32,949 bases of DNA from Desulfobacterales bacterium (GCA_037388985.1 JARRJQ010000059.1:1-32949), one strand, 5' to 3'. Shown: positions 1-8,814, counted from the first letter of the stretch. A program made the numbers and translations. The notes: generated by a model from the letters alone, not told the origin.

Positions 1-1326
1 AATCGAGTCGTTTCGATCAATTAAAAGTTTGATAAAGGAAAAATTACCCGGCAGAAAGAACACCGGCAACGCCGCCATCATGAAAAAAACATTGCGGTAG
101 TTCAATGCTCGAATGAGCTCGTAAGAAATCGGCAAATTGCTCAGCGTGAACATGTTCGCTAAAAATCCGATTCCTTGAGAGAGGCTTTCTGCACGGAAAA
201 TTACCCAACCGACCACAACGATGATCATCGTCACGAACCGCCGGATGACGAAATGTTTCTGCGGGGGTAGGTCACGGACACGGGTAACCCGTTCGCTGAT
301 TAAAAATAGGCCATGATAAATGCCCCACACTAGAAATGTCCAGTTTGCTCCATGCCAGAGTCCGCATAGGACACTGACCACGGCCGTATTGAGACAGGCT
401 CTGGCGGTCCCCCGGCGGTTGCCACCCAGGGGAATATAGAGATAGTCTCTAAACCAGCGGCTCAGTGTCATGTGCCAGCGACGCCAAAAATCGGTAATGC
501 AAACGGCAGAATAGGGACGATTGAAATTTTCCGGAATTGAAAAACCAAACAGCATTCCCAGGCCGATGGCCATATCGGAATACGCGGAAAAATCGAAATA
601 AATCTGAAGCGTATAGGCAATTGCACCGAGCCAGGCGGTTTTTGTATCAAGCAGATGCGGGTTGAGGCCGAAAATAACGTCTGTGATCTGTCCGCAGGAA
701 TTGGCAATGATCACTTTTTTTGCCAGGCCCCAGCAAAAGCGCATCGTTCCGTTAAAGAAATTATCCCACGATTCCCGGCGCTGCGTGAGCTGACGTCTGA
801 TCTGGCTGAAACGGACGATCGGCCCGGCGATTAACTGGGGAAACATGGCGATATAAAGGGCGAAGTCCACAGCGTTTTCAAGCGCGCGGCTTTTTCCGCG
901 ATAAACGTCGATAATATAGCTGAGCTTTTGAAATGTGAAAAATGAAATCCCGATGGGCAGAATAACTGCATTCCATTCGATTGAAGCAATTTTCAGCCCT
1001 GAAAGGAAACTATTTAACTGACCGATAAAAAAATTGGCGTACTTAAAATAGGCCAGAAGACCCAGATTAAGCAGCAGCGAAAGACAGAGCCACAGTGTCT
1101 TGTATTGGATTTTGCGGTCGATCAGGAGCCCCAGCACATAATCGGCCAACGTGGACAGGATTAGAATCAGAAGAAAACCGGCGGCTCCGTATAAATAAAA
1201 TAGGTAGCTGAAGAAAAGAAGAACTGCATTGCGCAGCTTGTTGGCAACTAAGAATTGCTGTCCAAAATAAAAAATGATAACAGCCGGTAGAAAGGCGAAA
1301 AGAAAAATAGTGCTTGAAAATACCAT
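1..1326 (-). CDS. MBOAT-family membrane O-acyltransferase (AlgI/PatA/DltB-like); C-terminus runs off the window
   Basis: Absent from the ORF track because it has no in-window stop. Manual translation of the minus strand from the ATG at 1326-1324 gives an uninterrupted 442-codon frame down to position 1: MVFSSTIFLFAFLPAVIIFYFGQ...FQKLSYIIDVYRG...FPQLIAGPIVRF...ITDFWRRWHMTLSRWFRDYLYIPLGGNR...LWHGANW. FWRRWHM(T/S)LS and the following WHG histidine are MBOAT hallmarks. Track ORFs 468..707 and 1067..1339 are out-of-frame shadows. Confidence 0.85.
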   Translation of the reverse strand, partial: MVFSSTIFLFAFLPAVIIFYFGQQFLVANKLRNAVLLFFSYLFYLYGAAGFLLILILSTLADYVLGLLIDRKIQYKTLWLCLSLLLNLGLLAYFKYANFFIGQLNSFLSGLKIASIEWNAVILPIGISFFTFQKLSYIIDVYRGKSRALENAVDFALYIAMFPQLIAGPIVRFSQIRRQLTQRRESWDNFFNGTMRFCWGLAKKVIIANSCGQITDVIFGLNPHLLDTKTAWLGAIAYTLQIYFDFSAYSDMAIGLGMLFGFSIPENFNRPYSAVCITDFWRRWHMTLSRWFRDYLYIPLGGNRRGTARACLNTAVVSVLCGLWHGANWTFLVWGIYHGLFLISERVTRVRDLPPQKHFVIRRFVTMIIVVVGWVIFRAESLSQGIGFLANMFTLSNLPISYELIRALNYRNVFFMMAALPVFFLPGNFSFIKLLIDRNDSI

Positions 1327-1338
1327 ATATCCATATCA

Positions 1339-2280
1339 TCAGGGCTGGTGCAATGCAAAAACGTGTTCGTTGCCCTTGCGCCCTTTAATCGAGACGGTTC
1401 CAAGGTCCTTCAGCGCGAGGGCGTTGCGCACCAGTTCGGCTGTCTGCGAGCAGATCACTATTTTTTCGGGTAGTTCTTTATTGGCCATACCGGATAAACG
1501 GAAGGCCAGATTGGTGCAATCACCGACCAGTGCGAGGTCCGTTGCACGGGAGCCATAATGGGACAGGGTAACCTTGCCGGTTGTTATCCCCCATCCCATC
1601 TGCAAATTATCAGCTGCCATATTTTTGCCGGATAATTTGGTCCGTATCTGGTCGATGGTTTGGGTCTGTTCGATTGCGGCCTGACAGGCCAGAACCGCCT
1701 GCTGGTTTATCGGTTCAATATGATGATCCCAAAAGGCGTAAACAGCGTCTCCGGCATAATCTTTAATCGTGCCCTTAAATCGATATACGATGGTGTTAAA
1801 CGCATCGATTATCTCCTTCATCAGCGCATATACATCTGATGACGCTTGGGCCTGGGAGAAAGTTGAAAACCCCCTGACATCCGCAACCACATTGGTAACG
1901 ACTACCTCCGTTGGGGTCACCATTGTTCCATCGGTTAAGATGGCCCGATCCCGACCAACGGTCACATCTGTCGAGGCAAACACCTTAAAGGAAATCCCTC
2001 CTAAACTAATAATGTCTTGATTGACCAGTTCACAGGATGCACCGGCTGCCAAACGGATTCCGTTTATCCAGGTACCGTTTTTACTCATATCCTTAATTTT
2101 AATCGCTTTATCATGGCGACTTATGACCGCATGATCTCTGGACACCTGGGCATTGCGCACCAGAATCCTTTTTTGAGGATCCACACCTTTGCAGCTTCTC
2201 CCAATAAAGATTTTATCGATAATTGTCAAACGTTGGATGTGTTGGTTTTCATCCATCCATTCCAAATAAGGGTCTGACAT
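1339..2280 (-). CDS. FHA domain fused to class III adenylate/guanylate cyclase catalytic domain
   Basis: The N-terminal ~100 aa carry FHA signatures (FIGRS...VSRDHAVIS...DMSKNGTWINGIRL). The C-terminal half carries cyclase signatures (VVADVRGFSTF, YAGDAVYAFW, LVGDCTNLAFRLSGMA with Asn/Arg). Confidence 0.85.
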   Translation of the reverse strand: MSDPYLEWMDENQHIQRLTIIDKIFIGRSCKGVDPQKRILVRNAQVSRDHAVISRHDKAIKIKDMSKNGTWINGIRLAAGASCELVNQDIISLGGISFKVFASTDVTVGRDRAILTDGTMVTPTEVVVTNVVADVRGFSTFSQAQASSDVYALMKEIIDAFNTIVYRFKGTIKDYAGDAVYAFWDHHIEPINQQAVLACQAAIEQTQTIDQIRTKLSGKNMAADNLQMGWGITTGKVTLSHYGSRATDLALVGDCTNLAFRLSGMANKELPEKIVICSQTAELVRNALALKDLGTVSIKGRKGNEHVFALHQP

Positions 2281-2392
2281 ATGTTGGCCTTAGATGTTCG
2301 GTGTTTTAGCCAAATTCGAACGTACCGGAAAAACCGATGCACACCCATTATTTCCGGGAATGTGAACGTCATAGGCGGTTTTTAGGACGGCT

Positions 2393-3121
2393 TCAAATGA
2401 TGGCAACCAAAACGACGGTAATATTATCGTATCCGCCGGCCGCTTTGGCTTTCTCGATCAGTTCTTCGGCTTTGCTTTGGATGTGGATATCGGCGCTCAC
2501 GATACTTTGGATCTGATCATCTGATATCATATCGGTCAGACCGTCTGAACAGAGTAGAAACAGATCTTCCGGGTACGTTTTTCCCGTTAACAGATCGATG
2601 GTCAACTCTTCTTTTATGCCAACTGCACGGAGGATGAGATTGCGCATCGGGTGATGTTTGATTTGGTCTGCAGATATCAGACCCTCTTGCAGCTGCTGCT
2701 GAACGAACGTATGGTCCTGGGTGAGTTGCTTGAGCTGTCCATCCCTTAACCGATAGGTGCGGCTGTCCCCGATATGACCGAGAATGAAACCCTCATCAAA
2801 GAATGCCAGAAGTTCAGCGGTACAGCCCATCCCCTGGTGATCCGGATGGTAAGCGACATGTTCTAGAATTTTTTGATTGGCGTGGCTATAGGCTTTGTGA
2901 ACCCGATATAAGATTTCCTTTTCCGAGCGGCTGGTATTATTTGAAAAAATTTCAAAAGCTGCCTCAGCAAAAATTTTGCTGGCGACCTCGCCTGCGGCTG
3001 CGCCACCCATGCCGTCGGCGGCAAGGTAGAAATCCAGCTCGGGATTCAGGGAAAATTCATCCTCATTATTTTCACGTTTGAGCCCGGTATCGGTTTTGCC
3101 GGCGAAAATTTTATGGGGCAT
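2393..3121 (-). CDS. PP2C-family Ser/Thr protein phosphatase
   Basis: Motifs GKTDTGLKRENNEDEF, AADGMGG, LLCSDGLTD and GGYDNITVV. RBS AGAGGAG lies upstream of the ATG at 3121. Confidence 0.9.
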   Translation of the reverse strand: MPHKIFAGKTDTGLKRENNEDEFSLNPELDFYLAADGMGGAAAGEVASKIFAEAAFEIFSNNTSRSEKEILYRVHKAYSHANQKILEHVAYHPDHQGMGCTAELLAFFDEGFILGHIGDSRTYRLRDGQLKQLTQDHTFVQQQLQEGLISADQIKHHPMRNLILRAVGIKEELTIDLLTGKTYPEDLFLLCSDGLTDMISDDQIQSIVSADIHIQSKAEELIEKAKAAGGYDNITVVLVAII

Positions 3122-3144
3122 TTTAAACTCCTCTGGTTTGCATC

Positions 3145-4794
3145 CTACTTTATCTGAGAGGAGTTGTTATTGGCCTTAAAGCTTTTTTTCATGAAATCCG
3201 CCAGATCGGTAGCGTCAAAGACTATTTTTTGCTCTTTCTTGAACGTCGCCAGATCCGTGTATACGGCCCCAGCGCTCTGATATCTCAAATTTTTCTGTTT
3301 CTCCAGGCATTTCATGACAATGCGATTTAATTCCTCCGGAATATCAGATATTAAATTGCACAGCGGTTCGATATCCATTTGCGGGATCATGCGAATCGCC
3401 TCGACATCGCTGCTAAAGGGGTACACTCTTTTTCCGCTAAGTGTTTCATAAAAAACCAGTCCGAGGGCATAAATATCGGCTCTATGGTCAATAGACTCGC
3501 CCAACGCCTGTTCGGGCGACAGATAAGCCAGCTTGCCCTTGACGACACCGGCCTGGGTTAAACTCGGTTCGGACCTTGCTTTTGAAATTCCAAAATCGCT
3601 TATTTTGACTTCGCCCTGATATGAAATAAGCAGGTTTTGAGGGCTGATATCACGGTGAACGATCTTAAAGGGCTCTCCGGTATTTTCGTCCTTCTTATTA
3701 TGCGAATAATCAAGCCCCTTGCATATTTGTGAGATAATAAAAATGGCTCGTTCAATCGATAGGCCATGTTTCAATGTCGAGAGAATTTCTCCCAGACTTT
3801 TGCCATCTATATATTCCATAGCAATGAAATACGCATTTTCAATGTTTCCGTAATCAAATATCTGGACGATATTCGGATGCTGCAAAAGTGCGGCAACCCG
3901 GGCTTCGCGGGTAAACATTTTGACAAAATCCGGGTTTCCGGCGAGGTGAGGTAAAATTCGTTTAACCGCCACCTTCCTGCGAAAGCCGTCTTCACGCACA
4001 TAATCGGCCAAAAACAACTCGGCCATCCCGCCGCGGGCTATCTTTCGATGTAAAACGTAAGGACCGATCCGGTCCATTTTTTCGATATTCTCTCTGAGCT
4101 TAATTGCCTTGACCTTGCTGCTGTGATTCAACCAGAATATAGCAACGCCCAGCAAAATGAGCGTGAGGATTATCCCGGATATATAGAACGCCCGCAATCG
4201 ACTCAGGTCGCTATTCAACTGAGCCGTTGAAAGCGCAAGGCAAACCTTTCCAATTTCGACATCTGAAAAAACAATTTTTTTCAAAAATGCGAAAACCGCT
4301 GTCTTGTCCGGTAAAATCCCTGAAGTAATCCTGATGCCATCCACGGTGTCGATGAGTTTTTCGTGCTGCAAAGGATCTAATGGCTGATTGATCATTTCCG
4401 TGTTTGTATGAGCCAGTATAATATTTTTATGATCAGCAATTGCAGCGAACTTGAAATTTTTTATATGGCTCAATTCTTTGATGGCGACATTGAGCGATAA
4501 GATATCTTTTTCTAGAACAAAGGGTCCGCTTTTGGATTCAAGGTTGTTGGCTTCGGAAAGTCCCAGCTGGAAAAATGCATTGCTTTGGCGTTCAACTGTG
4601 GTGTGATAAAATAACCACCCGGCAAAATTGATCAGCAGCCAAATAACTAGAAAAATGACGAGTTGATTCCGGTTGCGCTCGATAAATTGTATCTTCGTAA
4701 TGCGCTTCATTCTCCGCGCTACTTTAGTAAATGTACTCGTTGAAATTTCTTTTACTTTCAGCGCAGTCATCGTAGCTATATTACTGACAAGCAT
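3145..4794 (-). CDS. Membrane Ser/Thr protein kinase with an N-terminal TM / periplasmic sensor-like domain / TM and a C-terminal Hanks-type kinase domain
   Basis: Kinase motifs IARGGMAELF (G-loop), VAVKRI, HRDISPQNLL, ISDFGISK and AYLSPEQ. Two hydrophobic segments (LVIFLVIWLLINFAGWLF and ISGIILTLILLGVAIFWL) bracket a ~150-aa domain. A strong RBS (AAGGAGGG) lies 5-6 nt before the ATG at 4794. Confidence 0.9.
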   Translation of the reverse strand: MLVSNIATMTALKVKEISTSTFTKVARRMKRITKIQFIERNRNQLVIFLVIWLLINFAGWLFYHTTVERQSNAFFQLGLSEANNLESKSGPFVLEKDILSLNVAIKELSHIKNFKFAAIADHKNIILAHTNTEMINQPLDPLQHEKLIDTVDGIRITSGILPDKTAVFAFLKKIVFSDVEIGKVCLALSTAQLNSDLSRLRAFYISGIILTLILLGVAIFWLNHSSKVKAIKLRENIEKMDRIGPYVLHRKIARGGMAELFLADYVREDGFRRKVAVKRILPHLAGNPDFVKMFTREARVAALLQHPNIVQIFDYGNIENAYFIAMEYIDGKSLGEILSTLKHGLSIERAIFIISQICKGLDYSHNKKDENTGEPFKIVHRDISPQNLLISYQGEVKISDFGISKARSEPSLTQAGVVKGKLAYLSPEQALGESIDHRADIYALGLVFYETLSGKRVYPFSSDVEAIRMIPQMDIEPLCNLISDIPEELNRIVMKCLEKQKNLRYQSAGAVYTDLATFKKEQKIVFDATDLADFMKKSFKANNNSSQIK

Positions 4795-4824
4795 GGATCC
4801 CTCCTTGCACCTCGCTATTGATTA

Positions 4825-5700
4825 TCAGGTGGCCAGTTTGCTGATTATTGCGGCGCAGCGCAATATGACCTGGCGTCTAATAGATGAGAAATCCTTTGTT
4901 TTTGCGGGTTTTTGCAAATCTTTTTTTGGGGAATCAATGACGTCCACATGATGCGGCCCCTGTTTCGAAACCCCGCTTTTTAAAAATTTATCCAAATTTG
5001 ATGCACTGAATAGTCTGGCAGATTGCGATTTCTGGGAGCCGCAAAGTGGACAAATGACCAGGGCTTTTTTTGAGTTGGACATGTTTCCGGCATTTGCATG
5101 CTTTAAATCAAAATACCGAACAAGCCAGGTCTTGATCGACGCGTAGCGCAAAAATACAATCAGTACCAATAACAGGATAGAGCTGCAGACGGCTACAATT
5201 GTGAATTGCTTTCGGGTCTGAAACGATTGGGGAGTAGATAAGCCAATGAAAATCTCTCCGATTTTTGTGCCGGCGTAAATTATGTCTGACGCAAAGTTAA
5301 GAATTTTAGCATGGCTTGCAAAGCCTCCCTCCCAAATCGACACTTTTTCCACAGAACGGGTCGTATCGGTCATATCCGGCATAAGATGACCGGTTCCGGT
5401 AAATGCGACAACCTTATTGCGATGATCAACCACCGAGGCATAAACGACATTGGCTTGATTGGCGGCGTCGGTCAGCAAGTTGTGAATTGACTGGGAATTT
5501 TTTTCGAGAAGCGGCAGGCTGACGCGGCTGGAAAAGGTATTTGTAATTTCAACTCCTGATTTTCTTAACTGGTCTTTGAGGTGATTTACGCGCAGGGTGA
5601 TAATCGAGTAAACGATCAGCATTGCAAGCCACCAGAAAACCAGAATGAGAATCAAGTTGCGGTCGCTTAAACGTTTGCTTAATCGCTGGATCAAATCCAT
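4825..5700 (-). CDS. Membrane protein whose TM-bracketed sensor-like domain is paralogous to the N-terminal half of the adjacent kinase; cytoplasmic tail contains CPLCG
   Basis: TM segments LILVFWWLAMLIVYSIITL and IVAVCSSILLLVLIVFL. Internal similarity to the kinase ectodomain: NVVYASVVDHRNKVVAFTG / KFAAIADHKNIILAHTN, and KIGEIFIGLSTPQ / EIGKVCLALSTAQ. No recognisable enzymatic output domain. Confidence 0.6.
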   Translation of the reverse strand: MDLIQRLSKRLSDRNLILILVFWWLAMLIVYSIITLRVNHLKDQLRKSGVEITNTFSSRVSLPLLEKNSQSIHNLLTDAANQANVVYASVVDHRNKVVAFTGTGHLMPDMTDTTRSVEKVSIWEGGFASHAKILNFASDIIYAGTKIGEIFIGLSTPQSFQTRKQFTIVAVCSSILLLVLIVFLRYASIKTWLVRYFDLKHANAGNMSNSKKALVICPLCGSQKSQSARLFSASNLDKFLKSGVSKQGPHHVDVIDSPKKDLQKPAKTKDFSSIRRQVILRCAAIISKLAT

Positions 5701-5941
5701 TTGATAGTTTGCCCCCTTAGTTTAAAAGGCAATCGTTCACTGATTGCCGGCACAAATAAGCGGCTGAAGCCGATGGGTTTGATAAGCGCAGCTTTAGCTT
5801 TAAATTTTAACGATTTTAAATTATTATGGTCAAGTACCAAAGTCAAGCAAATTAACTGCCGGAAATTTTTATGATTTGCGGGTTTGAAGCGTCAAAAGCG
5901 CTTCAGGGCTTCAAAAGCTGGCGCTAAATTCGATATTTGAA

Positions 5942-5971
5942 TTGACAAGCACCCAAAAATCAGCTTTTAAT
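5942..5971 (+). promoter_or_regulatory. Candidate sigma70 promoter for the deacetylase/LysM-TPR operon
   Basis: TTGACA (5942-5947), an 18-nt spacer, then TTTAAT (5966-5971). It lies about 100 nt upstream of the RBS-supported start at 6072. Confidence 0.3.
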
Positions 5972-6071
5972 GATGGTTATTCGAATTATTCAGCACAGAT
6001 TGGTGGATTTCTGCGCGCACCTTTTTCGACAAATGGTGATTTTTCGGCTCATCTCATATCCGAGGACGATT

Positions 6072-7121
6072 ATGTACCCTGGCCTTATTTCTCTACCTCT
6101 GACCGATCGGTGCTCAAATATCCATAAAATTTTATTTCTTATTATGCTCTTTGTCATAGGATCAACAGCTTTTTGGTCGTGTGCACCGACCCGAGCAGTT
6201 ACTGAACCTTCAGCGGAAAGGCTTTTTCGTTCCAAAGACTATGTTGTTTATCAACTGCAGGACAATGAGACATCGGCTGAGCTTGCTGAAAGATTTTTGG
6301 GGGGCAACAGCCAATCATGGATAATCGAAGAAGCCAATCCGGGGATTATTTTTAAAAGAGGCGCTGCGATCGTGATTCCGCTGAAAGATAGAAACAGAGC
6401 AGGGCTGAGCCCGGAAGGATTTCAGACCATACCGGTACTGACCTATCATCGGTTTGCAGAAAATTGCGACTCTCCGCTCTGTATGCCGGCAGCTACATTT
6501 GAGCTTCAAATGCAATATCTGAAGAACAATGGGTATCACGCGATTACAGCCGAGCAATTGCTTGCCTTTCTCGAATACCGTGAGAGACTGCCGGAAAAAT
6601 CTGTGCTCATCACTATGGATGACGGATATCGTTCCGTATATGAAATCGCATATCCGATTCTCAAAAAATACGGGTTTACCGCAACCCTGTTTATCTATAC
6701 GAGTTTTGTAGGTGCTTCACGAATGGCGATCACCTGGGAGCAACTTAAAGAGATGCAGAGGAGCGGATTTACGATTGGCTCTCATTCCATTTATCACAGC
6801 GACCTCACCCGGCTAAAAGAAGGAGAAACGGAACAGGAATATCTTGCGCGGATCAAAGAGGAACTTTATGGATCTAAAAAAATTATCGATCAAAAATTGG
6901 GCCAGAACACATATATTTTTGCGTATCCGTTTGGCTATTATGATCAAAGATCGATCCAAACCGCTCGAGAAGCGGGCTATAAAATTGCAATGTCAGTAAA
7001 AAGGGGCGGTAACCCTTTTTTCGCCAATCCTTTGACATTAAGAAGAGACCAGATCCTGAAAAAGGATATGCAAACTTTTATCTCCAGACTGAAAACTTTT
7101 AACGCTCTTTCTTTAAAGTGA
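6072..7121 (+). CDS. LysM-domain polysaccharide deacetylase (NodB/CE4 family), probable lipoprotein
   Basis: The track ORF starts at 5970, but GAGGA (6062-6066) precedes the ATG at 6072. This gives a signal-peptide-like N-terminus ending AFWSC. A LysM-like segment is present (YVVYQLQDNETSAELAERFLG...GAAIVIP). CE4 motifs are TMDDGY and SHSIYHSD. Confidence 0.8.
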   Translation: MYPGLISLPLTDRCSNIHKILFLIMLFVIGSTAFWSCAPTRAVTEPSAERLFRSKDYVVYQLQDNETSAELAERFLGGNSQSWIIEEANPGIIFKRGAAIVIPLKDRNRAGLSPEGFQTIPVLTYHRFAENCDSPLCMPAATFELQMQYLKNNGYHAITAEQLLAFLEYRERLPEKSVLITMDDGYRSVYEIAYPILKKYGFTATLFIYTSFVGASRMAITWEQLKEMQRSGFTIGSHSIYHSDLTRLKEGETEQEYLARIKEELYGSKKIIDQKLGQNTYIFAYPFGYYDQRSIQTAREAGYKIAMSVKRGGNPFFANPLTLRRDQILKKDMQTFISRLKTFNALSLK

Positions 7122-7128
7122 GAAAACA

Positions 7129-8814
7129 ATGAAAACTAAAGCAGGAATTGTCGGCATCATCATCTTGTTTGTCTGGGCAGGCGGGTGCGCGACATTCGGC
7201 ACCAAGTCGCCGAAACAGCTTGCCGACGAATATACGGCAAAAGCACAGCAATACGAAGCAAAAAGTGATCTTGTTGCGGCCTTAGAGCAATACAAACTCG
7301 TTCTGACGGTTGATCCTGAAAATCAATTGGCCCAGCAAAAAAGAAAAGCGATCGAGCCGCAACTCAACAAGCTGGCCGAGGAGCACTATCAAGCCGGGTT
7401 AAAGTTCTATCGCCAGGGCCAATACCGTCCGGCACGCAAAGAGTTTCTGACTGCACTGCGATATAATCCGGATCACAAGCAGGCCAAAGACATTTTGACC
7501 GGCACAAAAAAAGAGCTGGAGCACGTCAACAGGTATATTGTGCATACCATTCAAGGGGATGAAACCATCTCAACTTTAGCTGAACGGTATTACGGAGACT
7601 ATCGAAAGTTTCATCTCATTGCTGAGTACAATGAACTGGAGGATGCCACCAAGGTTACCGTCGGTGAGCAGATTAAGATTCCCGTTATTGAAGGAATGCC
7701 GATCATTGCGAATCCGGCAGATATTCAGACCGTTAGCCCTGCGCCGGCTAGCGCCGTGCCCGGTGAAGTTATCATCGCAAAAAGATTCATCACTCACATC
7801 GTTCAGCCGGAAGAGAGTCTTTCAAAACTGGCCTTGATGTATTATGGCGACTACAGCAAGTATGATCTCATCGCCAAATTCAACGACATCAAAAACGATA
7901 GCAGCCTGAGGGTCGGACAGGAGATTAAAATACCTGAAGTCGAGGGGCTGCCCTTTTTGGCCGGTAAAAACGTACAGGAGGCGAAAACGGCCGAAGTATC
8001 TAAAGAATTGACGGCACCTGCGGCGGTAACTGAACAAGCCAAAGAAAAAGAAGCCCTCCAGCCGCAAATGACAGCAGAAGATCAGATGGTTAACTATCGG
8101 GAGCTGGGTATTGAACTTTACAAAGATAAGGAATACGTGGATGCGATCAACGAATTCAATAAGGTTTTAAATGTAAACCCGACCGACTCGATTGCCCTCA
8201 ATTATATGGCGCTTGCTTATTTTGAAAAAGGGCGGAGTTCGTTCGAAAACAAAGCTTACTCTCAGGCGCAGACAGAATTTGAAACTTCCCTTAAATACAA
8301 CAAGACTTGCCCGGAATGCCGGCAATACATTGATAAGATTGAGGAAAAAAACCGCATCAGTCTTCGTGAAGATGCGATCGCTTTATACAATAAAAAAGAA
8401 TTCAAAGATGCGATCGTTAAGTTAGAAGCAGTTGCTCAAGAAAATCCCAAAGATGCTCAAATACAGGACTACCTTGCCAAGTCCCATTTCCAACAGGGAT
8501 TGATTCTATTCGGCAAAGAAGACTATCTAGCCGCCAGAGACCAATTCAAAGCTTCCCTGAAATACGATAAAAAATGTGACCAATGTGAAAAAAATATACA
8601 GAAATGCGAAAATACTTATAAAGAGGTTCATTACGATAAAGGACTGGCAAACTTCGGGGATCAAAAATTAGCCGAAGCTATTGCTGAATGGGAGTCTGTT
8701 TCAGCACTCGATCCGGATTTCAAAGATGTAAAAAAGAATCTAACAAAGGCTAGAGATCTTTTAGAGCGTCTTGAAAGCATCAGACGCAGCAAGACAGAAG
8801 AAAACAAAAATTAG
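7129..8814 (+). CDS. Lipoprotein with two LysM domains and multiple TPR-like repeats, including a duplicated TPR-CxxC module
   Basis: Signal peptide with lipobox (IIILFVWAGGC). Two LysM copies: YIVHTIQGDETISTLAERYYGDYRKFHLIAEYN...GEQIKIP and FITHIVQPEESLSKLALMYYGDYSKYDLIAKFN...GQEIKIP. Repeated helical modules end in SLKYNKTCPECRQYIDKIEE and SLKYDKKCDQCEKNIQKCE. Confidence 0.8.
   Translation: MKTKAGIVGIIILFVWAGGCATFGTKSPKQLADEYTAKAQQYEAKSDLVAALEQYKLVLTVDPENQLAQQKRKAIEPQLNKLAEEHYQAGLKFYRQGQYRPARKEFLTALRYNPDHKQAKDILTGTKKELEHVNRYIVHTIQGDETISTLAERYYGDYRKFHLIAEYNELEDATKVTVGEQIKIPVIEGMPIIANPADIQTVSPAPASAVPGEVIIAKRFITHIVQPEESLSKLALMYYGDYSKYDLIAKFNDIKNDSSLRVGQEIKIPEVEGLPFLAGKNVQEAKTAEVSKELTAPAAVTEQAKEKEALQPQMTAEDQMVNYRELGIELYKDKEYVDAINEFNKVLNVNPTDSIALNYMALAYFEKGRSSFENKAYSQAQTEFETSLKYNKTCPECRQYIDKIEEKNRISLREDAIALYNKKEFKDAIVKLEAVAQENPKDAQIQDYLAKSHFQQGLILFGKEDYLAARDQFKASLKYDKKCDQCEKNIQKCENTYKEVHYDKGLANFGDQKLAEAIAEWESVSALDPDFKDVKKNLTKARDLLERLESIRRSKTEENKN

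Follow-up and report, generated by a model that had tools for sequence, protein, structure and literature searches.

Known pairs of a membrane-bound O-acyltransferase (MBOAT) with an SGNH protein are described as constitutive enzyme pairs, and to our knowledge it is largely unknown how glycan O-acetylation is regulated in Gram-negative bacteria. Triads of a Hanks kinase, a PP2C phosphatase, and an FHA protein are represented by PpkA-PppA-Fha1 of the H1 type VI secretion system (T6SS) of Pseudomonas aeruginosa, by PknB-PstP-FhaA/GarA of mycobacteria, and by the PASTA kinases of the cell wall. The locus analyzed here joins genes of both kinds. It lies in a stretch of 32,949 nucleotides (nt) from a Desulfobacterales bacterium (GCA_037388985.1, JARRJQ010000059.1:1-32949), referred to below as the window, which starts at the end of contig C59 in a metagenome-assembled genome (MAG) of 570 contigs. 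With the triads it has in common that a membrane kinase, whose sensor is extracytoplasmic, is encoded together with its cognate PP2C and an FHA reader, and that the setting is envelope related. We propose, with a probability of roughly 0.55, that the window holds one arm of a conserved Desulfobacterales locus, a kinase-linked unit that would set how far an envelope glycan is acetylated. The parts are known (MBOAT-SGNH pairs, Hanks kinase/PP2C/FHA triads, and class III cyclases), and the mechanism is one that we infer. The features of the locus are as follows.

4825 to 5700, minus strand: kinase-less sensor paralogue, 291 amino acids (aa), BLASTP E value of 1e-10 to the kinase N terminus
3145 to 4794, minus strand: membrane Hanks-type Ser/Thr kinase, 549 aa, Pkinase E value of 2e-41
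2393 to 3121, minus strand: PP2C Ser/Thr phosphatase of the Stp1/IreP family, 242 aa, NF033484
2281 to 2392, minus strand: PP2C-cyclase spacer, 112 nt, no promoter or terminator match on the minus strand
1339 to 2280, minus strand: FHA plus class III nucleotidyl cyclase, 313 aa, from Pfam matches
1327 to 1338, minus strand: cyclase-MBOAT junction, 12 nt, with GATATGGATAT ahead of the ATG, a compressed state of a longer spacer
1 to 1326, minus strand: MBOAT O-acyltransferase, residues 1 to 442 of 475, PF03062
5701 to 5969, no strand: promoter region from which the kinase and deacetylase operons diverge, 269 nt, consensus matches only
5970 to 7121, plus strand: CE4 polysaccharide deacetylase, a lipoprotein whose N-terminal region is LysM-like, PF01522 E value of 2e-28
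7129 to 8814, plus strand: TPR/2xLysM lipoprotein, TPR and LysM matches, AGGC lipobox

Conservation was assessed in 301 genomes of the Desulfobacterales, with families assigned by GTDB and orthologue-tier MBOAT defined as 57% identity or more. The sensor paralogue was matched in 24 of these genomes (10 families), the FHA-cyclase orthologue in 18 (8 families), and the orthologue-tier MBOAT in 17 to 18 (6 families). The CE4 deacetylase and TPR/LysM lipoprotein genes, divergent from the sensor paralogue and the kinase, form a hub that recurs in nine families (f1, f11, f24, f30, f50, f58, f59, f68, and f79), and the genes flanking the cluster on the outside are not conserved. In at least four families, the 3'-most genes of the kinase operon are those of MBOAT and its periplasmic partner, and two of these families lack an FHA-cyclase altogether. 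What lies between kinase and MBOAT differs: nothing in G145 and G274; PP2C only in G313; PP2C and the FHA-cyclase in the window's family and in G034/G244; PP2C, a 2xFHA-TPR protein, and a lipoprotein in G023; and PP2C, the FHA-cyclase, a 312-aa protein, and a SulP-STAS transporter with a cyclic nucleotide monophosphate (cNMP)-binding domain in G024. In G023, the FHA-cyclase is the last gene of the deacetylase operon on the divergent side, and no orthologue of it occurs in the entire genomes of G145 and G313. An orthologous MBOAT was present in 14 of 24 sensor-positive genomes versus 4 of 277 sensor-negative ones (14/10/4/273), which is indicative only, the genomes not being independent; counted by family, the co-occurrence was 5/5/1/78 (Fisher p = 3e-5, again indicative only).

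Judged by gene order, the kinase pair is the constant element of the locus, the deacetylase/LysM pair its most faithful neighbor, and the MBOAT pair a frequent one, while PP2C and the FHA-cyclase are optional layers. The full window-type arrangement occurs in about 20 genus-level contigs, and adjacency of cyclase and MBOAT, in at least 14 species-level genomes of two families, is not unique to the window's genome. Because kinase-MBOAT clusters exist without the cyclase and cyclase orthologues occur in genomes without MBOAT, the cyclase is an optional insert rather than the conserved link, and both it and its tight fusion to MBOAT are, on the same comparison, recent, lineage-specific additions. 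The initial annotation had described a relay from phosphothreonine to cNMP within an O-acylation operon; given the lack of the FHA-cyclase in G145 and G313 and six cyclase-bearing genomes without MBOAT, that relay is better described as a lineage-specific elaboration than as the core of the locus. Its broader suggestion of an undescribed envelope-modification control circuit gains support from the conserved neighborhood of sensor kinase and deacetylase/LysM genes, with the MBOAT pair in some families.

Two genomes carry altered versions of the cluster. In G022, the FHA-cyclase orthologue begins 2 nt past a Bac_transf sugar transferase gene, itself downstream of Poly_export, PBP2, and MreBC genes (L022:7689-10964 and L056); elsewhere in that genome, a PP2C orthologue adjoins a truncated MBOAT fragment in what looks like a decayed cluster. 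The rearranged cluster of G023 (L021:11108-13555 and L055:5191-8537) includes three additional kinds of gene, coding for a fused protein with VipA/VipB-like sheath domains, for two further double-FHA proteins, and for a GNA1162-like lipoprotein that has a beta-helix domain.

In the window itself, open reading frame (ORF) calls gave five minus-strand genes of 291, 549, 242, 313, and 442 aa, the last truncated by the contig end, with gaps of 30, 23, 112, and 12 nt in transcription order. The MBOAT ATG occupies positions 1324 to 1326, 12 nt past the cyclase TGA. A hairpin scan of the region found no terminator-like hairpin in any of the four gaps; the minus-strand terminator-like matches all fell inside coding sequence, the total number of matches was not in excess (13 versus 8.4 ± 3.4 in shuffles), and the 112-nt spacer folded no better than shuffles (z = −0.30). 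The best promoter-like match for the operon, TTGACC-18-TAAAAT, is on the minus strand at 5833 to 5804, upstream of the sensor paralogue (10 of 12 consensus positions), and the plus-strand candidates at 5779 to 5827 are likewise consensus matches only. Cotranscription of the five genes in the window's genome is likely, because the gaps hold no terminator and the last junction is only 12 nt long. The five genes and their gaps, the lack of terminators between them, and the MBOAT start at 1326 had all been described in the initial annotation and were confirmed, and its domain assignments were upheld by Pfam and NCBIfam matches together with motifs or, for the sensor paralogue, by BLASTP.

The kinase domain (residues 247 to 507) is preceded by an N-terminal region with two transmembrane (TM) segments, at 43 to 65 and 199 to 226, which enclose a periplasmic Cache/PDC-like domain. 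Its Hanks catalytic motifs are complete (VAVK278, HRD380, DFG400, and SPE426), and two Thr residues are conserved among orthologues; T413 lies in the activation loop, and T19 belongs to the N-terminal tail. The match to sCache_3_2 was below threshold (E value of 4e-4; 20.9 to 25.4 bits across the sequences scored, against a Pfam cutoff of 28.4). The sensor paralogue had no Pfam family match. It aligned to kinase residues 29 to 220 with 21% identity and has the same TM-periplasmic-TM topology as the kinase sensor region, followed by a cytoplasmic tail of ~100 aa in which a CPLC motif and C282 are invariant in the orthologue alignment. A medium-confidence model (predicted local distance difference test score, pLDDT, of 60.6) showed a PDC/Cache-type periplasmic domain whose best matches among solved folds were the sensor domains of WalK/YycG, CdgS9, and CitA. 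The paralogue belongs to a small family, of which 1.84 billion proteins yielded only 90 cluster representatives.

The closest solved structure to the MBOAT protein (PF03062, E value of 1e-27) is DltB (6bug, E value of 3.6e-24). Identity as DltB itself was rejected, as the TIGR04091 score was 171.9 bits against a cutoff of 375 and there are no DltA/C/D/X genes in the neighborhood. The catalytic His lies in an LWHG motif, and the WHG His, at position 324/325, is present in all orthologues. A partner of the SGNH type had been predicted to the left of the window, and it was found both on contig C457 and in all relatives. The reverse complement of C457 (2,832 bp) opens with the missing MBOAT C terminus, the last ~28 to 33 residues ending in GPFIYYRF and the stop codon, which is followed after 4 nt by the partner ATG; the contig holds most of the AlgX/SASA partner gene, and no sequence overlap between C59 and C457 was detected. 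The partner starts 4 to 6 nt past the MBOAT stop on C457 and in the relatives. The FxYxxF tail of MBOAT (FIYYRF) is invariant in 21 orthologues. In PatA, the Tyr of this acyl-shuttle motif carries the acetyl to PatB (PMC12148441).

In the relatives, the partner has 977 to 1,164 aa and combines an N-terminal AlgX/AlgJ-type domain (PF16822) with a C-terminal SGNH domain of the sialate O-acetylesterase (SASA) type (PF03629). The catalytic Asp-x-His of AlgJ has been lost: TDTHW of AlgJ aligns to TRTNW in L052, and across the orthologues the Asp position is occupied by C, S, G, H, or R (never Asp) and the His position by N, Y, C, H, F, or D. Since this dyad is variable, whereas CLGQSNM and WIQGEADA, the SASA blocks, hardly vary among partner orthologues, the SGNH domain with catalytic competence is probably that of the SASA type. 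Three features that mark a PatA/PatB-type pair are present, namely, the MBOAT His, the FxYxxF tail, and an adjacent membrane-anchored periplasmic SGNH protein with a catalytic-type Ser (GQSN).

On the divergent side, the CE4 deacetylase carries TMDD and HSIYH motifs and an FWSC lipobox, and its best NCBIfam matches, PgaB/IcaB, fell below cutoff. The listed ORF has 383 aa; since relatives have 349 aa and the FWSC lipoprotein signal lies 3' of an internal Met, the true start is probably near 6072, ~34 codons inside. The TPR/LysM gene is codirectional with the deacetylase gene and adjoins it in all families examined. In G274, a gene 3' of the TPR/LysM gene (L071:15517-17010) encodes a cytoplasmic FHA domain fused to an SLT lytic transglycosylase domain, which hints that phosphothreonine signaling reaches peptidoglycan-cleaving enzymes. 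The conserved gene set of the locus contains no glycan synthase or exporter. The glycan would most simply be peptidoglycan, favored by the LysM domains, the CE4 enzyme, and the FHA-SLT fusion, and otherwise a GlcNAc (N-acetylglucosamine)-containing exopolysaccharide, kept possible by an AlgE-like porin in G227 and the PgaB/IcaB-like matches of the CE4 enzyme.

The PP2C protein scored above the NCBIfam equivalog cutoff for Stp1/IreP (NF033484, 243.5 bits versus 230). The cyclase gene joins an FHA domain (PF00498, 8e-14; residues ~25 to 94) to a Guanylate_cyc domain (PF00211, 3e-13; residues ~128 to 311). Phosphothreonine-binding residues are kept in the former (GR, SRDH, and NG), and phospho-binding is predicted from this motif; GR..SRDH was found in 33 of 34 FHA-cyclase orthologues and SRNH in the remaining one. 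The cyclase motifs ADVRGF, KDYAGD, and TNLAFRL are conserved among the same 34. Set against the closest PDB structure, P. aeruginosa CyaB (3r5g, E value of 2.6e-13), the protein has both metal-binding Asp residues and the transition-state Asn/Arg of class III cyclases (ADVRGF, AGDAV, and TNLAFRL), and cyclase activity is plausible. The canonical substrate pair (Lys/Asp for ATP or Glu/Cys for GTP) is not matched, as Asp occupies both the Lys position and the second position. KDYAGD aligns to DKFVGD of CyaB, with the Lys one residue earlier than canonical, and the KDYxGD signature is invariant in orthologues of 50 to 100% identity. The scheme in which phosphothreonine is written, erased, and read, as first proposed for these genes, is thus coherent at the level of domains, with the kinase, the PP2C, the FHA domain, and most of the catalytic motifs of the cyclase intact.

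Proteins with cNMP-binding domains adjoin the cyclase orthologue in two separate contexts. In G024 (L040:3285-6460) and on L043 (1630-3852), the FHA-cyclase gene is followed by that of a 312-aa protein without a family match and then by that of a 740-aa transporter, SulP/BicA-like, that carries STAS and cNMP-binding domains. In G141 (L072:1781-3703), directly 3' of the cyclase gene is that of a 212-aa zinc-ribbon and cNMP-binding protein, followed by an ABC-ATPase-GGDEF fusion. These neighbors suggest that the cyclase product is read by classical cNMP-binding domains, and the SulP-STAS-cNMP transporter is a candidate receptor for it. A second FHA-cyclase paralogue, 53% identical, was found in the same genus (G016, contig C170; L023:1958-8004), upstream of genes for a 191-aa protein and a 1,476-aa kinase-nSTAND-WD40 protein.

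The junction between cyclase and MBOAT varies among relatives. Tight junctions were found in independent metagenome assemblies, of 9 nt in L048 and L050 and of 12 nt in L052 to L054, and were limited to contigs with a cyclase 87 to 95% identical to that of the window, all of them from the closest relatives (83 to 96% identity). An assembly artifact at the 12-nt junction was rejected; the junction is real because it is common to these independent assemblies. In all 12 relatives with a cyclase 70 to 78% identical, the spacer measured 97 to 460 nt. Conserved sigma-70-like boxes were present in 10 of the 12 aligned spacers, as TTGATT-17-TA(A/G)AAT in seven and, in the other three, as TTGA(C/T)A-18-TATTA(T/A) with its end 6 nt ahead of the ATG. 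Because only the closest relatives have the tight junction and all more distant ones have the longer spacer, this comparison makes the compressed junction a derived deletion in a shallow subclade. The MBOAT gene had first been described as transcriptionally fused to the signaling cassette. That description stands for the window and its close relatives, with their tight, terminator-free junction, and fails as a general statement, given the longer spacers and promoter-like boxes elsewhere. No Rfam family was matched in the loci of six relatives with such spacers, and the spacers of relatives showed only weak AT-rich or REP-like hairpins. An element of ~60 nt that includes an internal inverted repeat (TATACCGC...GCGGTATA) is present once in the cyclase-MBOAT spacer of L035 and twice in that of L036 (about L036:11000-11290); it looks like a repetitive extragenic palindrome or miniature inverted-repeat transposable element.

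Several observations weigh against a kinase-linked acetylation unit. All genomes compared are uncultured MAGs. The MBOAT-partner pair stands alone in family f29, and six genomes with an FHA-cyclase orthologue lack any MBOAT homologue. In the relatives with longer spacers, the boxes indicate that the MBOAT pair probably has its own promoter, an architecture that does not require coregulation. The product of the cyclase is uncertain because Asp replaces the canonical substrate Lys, and nucleotide specificity is not predictable from an Asp at that position. There is no cNMP receptor in this locus. The window's genome has about 12 to 13 cNMP-binding matches, none of them on C59 or C457, and because such proteins are many (at least 12) and the cyclase matches number 17, a cyclic nucleotide output cannot be traced.

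It could therefore be argued that the signaling genes and the MBOAT pair are functionally independent, adjacent by descent in a few related lineages, with the 12-nt junction as a neutral deletion. Such independence would fit the spacers of 97 to 460 nt with promoter-like boxes in most relatives, the solitary pair of f29, the 10 sensor-positive genomes without an orthologous MBOAT, and the more distant MBOAT homologues (37 to 50% identity), which are paired with a plain AlgX-domain protein in unrelated contexts. We nevertheless regard it as unlikely, although the best placed of the alternatives, since, despite differing intervening genes, the pair remains 3'-most in the kinase operon in at least four GTDB families, the genes flanking the cluster are not conserved, and the co-occurrence is strong even by family.

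A second alternative accepts the tie between kinase and glycan enzymes and regards the FHA-cyclase as a later insert whose cyclic nucleotide serves unrelated targets, for instance the SulP-STAS-cNMP transporter, and not acylation control. G145 and G313, with a kinase-MBOAT cluster and no FHA-cyclase, agree with this, as do the relocation of the cyclase in G023, G274, and G022 and the nature of the cNMP-binding neighbors, a transporter and a zinc-ribbon protein. Its position between PP2C and MBOAT in the window's family and in G034/G244/L046 argues the other way. Even where it has moved (G023, G141, and G227), the cyclase is still within about 5 to 13 kb of the kinase and deacetylase genes; in G141 and G227, which have no MBOAT, it lies ~5 to 9 kb from the sensor-kinase-deacetylase hub. 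We consider this alternative improbable.

It is very improbable that the locus is a T6SS-style Thr phosphorylation pathway (PpkA/PppA/Fha) controlling a contractile or secretion apparatus. The FHA domain gave a weak TagH match (TIGR03354, 30.6 bits versus a cutoff of 120), and the G023 cluster has the VipA/VipB-like protein and extra FHA proteins described above; the VipA/B-like gene is confined to that one genome, and no sheath, baseplate, or Hcp/VgrG genes occur in the window or in most relatives. An antiphage defense module, with a Pycsar-like cyclase or a PD-T4-6-like kinase, is more improbable still and was rejected, as the PADLOC matches (PycC for the cyclase, E value of 5e-12; PD-T4-6 for the kinase, E value of 1e-77) are generic domain-level ones, no cognate effector gene is present, PADLOC matched none of the MBOAT, sensor paralogue, deacetylase, and LysM proteins, and the cluster is stably chromosomal and vertically conserved over nine families.

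Under the preferred reading of a kinase-linked acetylation unit, the hub is the membrane Hanks kinase with its putative periplasmic single-Cache/PDC sensor and the kinase-less sensor paralogue, transcribed divergently from the CE4 deacetylase and TPR/LysM lipoproteins. In several families, the kinase operon closes with MBOAT and its bipartite periplasmic partner (degenerate AlgJ-like plus SASA-type SGNH), and in the window's family PP2C and the FHA-cyclase stand between kinase and MBOAT. The Cache domains would read a glycan-related periplasmic cue, and the kinase would autophosphorylate on Thr, with T413 and T19 as candidate sites. The FHA domain would then dock the cyclase on the phosphorylated kinase, such that the cyclic nucleotide is made at the membrane, and PP2C would reset the phospho-switch. 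MBOAT would load acetyl from acetyl coenzyme A on its C-terminal Tyr for O-acetylation of the glycan by the SASA-type SGNH domain, while the CE4 enzyme would strip N-acetyl groups from the glycan. In the window's subclade, the deletion may have removed the promoter region of the MBOAT pair, leaving its expression to ride on the kinase operon transcript. A more specific version is tentative, and we are inclined to doubt it as it stands: the Cache-kinase and the sensor paralogue would monitor the acetylation state of the glycan (probably peptidoglycan) and, by Thr phosphorylation, directly control the MBOAT/SASA-SGNH pair and the CE4 N-deacetylase, with a cyclic nucleotide made via the FHA-cyclase as well in the window's family. 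If true, such a periplasmic acetylation monitor would be a previously undescribed Gram-negative envelope homeostasis circuit, and its MBOAT partner would represent a new class, of the SASA type.

For the regulation of O-acetylation, the locus is a concrete, testable candidate: in about nine families of one order, a Hanks kinase operon with an MBOAT pair as its last genes lies opposite a deacetylase/LysM pair. The natural series of architectures (kinase alone, with PP2C, and with the FHA-cyclase) could be used to dissect what each signaling part adds, and the MBOAT partner is of interest in its own right, with its degenerate AlgJ-like domain and conserved SASA-type SGNH domain. Because these Desulfobacterales, relatives of sulfate reducers, come from sediment and are uncultured, mechanism and annotation stand to gain first, and application less so. 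In the literature searched, which covered FHA-cyclase fusions and kinase control of O-acetylation, we found no description of a link between a Cache-kinase operon and both an MBOAT pair and a deacetylase/LysM pair, of a bipartite partner whose AlgJ-like domain is degenerate and whose SASA-type domain is conserved, or of an FHA-cyclase with the KDYxGD signature.

The MBOAT and its partner resemble the PatA/PatB(/Ape1), AlgI/AlgJ/AlgX, WssH/WssI, and PatA1/PatB1 pairs (PMC12148441, PMC4148444) in the conserved MBOAT His and the FxYxxF tail, which reads FIYYRF here and FIYANF in PatA of Neisseria gonorrhoeae. As in PatA/PatB-type pairs, a membrane-anchored periplasmic SGNH-type protein directly follows MBOAT and the locus has no polymer synthase. 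Unlike those pairs, the partner is a fusion of 977 to 1,164 aa in which the AlgJ-like domain lacks the catalytic Asp/His and the conserved domain is of the SASA type, and the pair ends a Hanks-kinase operon, a setting not described for them in the literature searched. With soluble class III adenylate cyclases of the CyaB type, the cyclase shares the metal Asp pair, the Asn and Arg of the transition state, and an Asp of the adenine type; it differs in having FHA as its regulatory domain and Asp at the substrate-Lys position (KDYxGD). The best match of the predicted periplasmic domain of the sensor paralogue is the extracellular single-Cache domain of WalK (YycG), the cell wall homeostasis sensor of Firmicutes (Foldseek E values of 1e-4 to 1e-5; TM-score of 0.55 to 0.6 on the target), a likeness in the generic PDC fold that comes from the pLDDT 60.6 model and has no sequence-level counterpart. 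WalK is a histidine kinase, whereas the kinase here is of the Hanks type; the two are alike in that glycan-modifying enzymes adjoin the sensor kinase locus. In comparison with the Hanks kinase/PP2C/FHA triads, finally, the sensor N-terminal to the kinase is a putative Cache/PDC domain, in a histidine kinase-like topology, and not PASTA or vWA; PP2C and FHA are absent in several families, the FHA reader, where present, is fused to a nucleotide cyclase, and a kinase-less sensor paralogue is always there.

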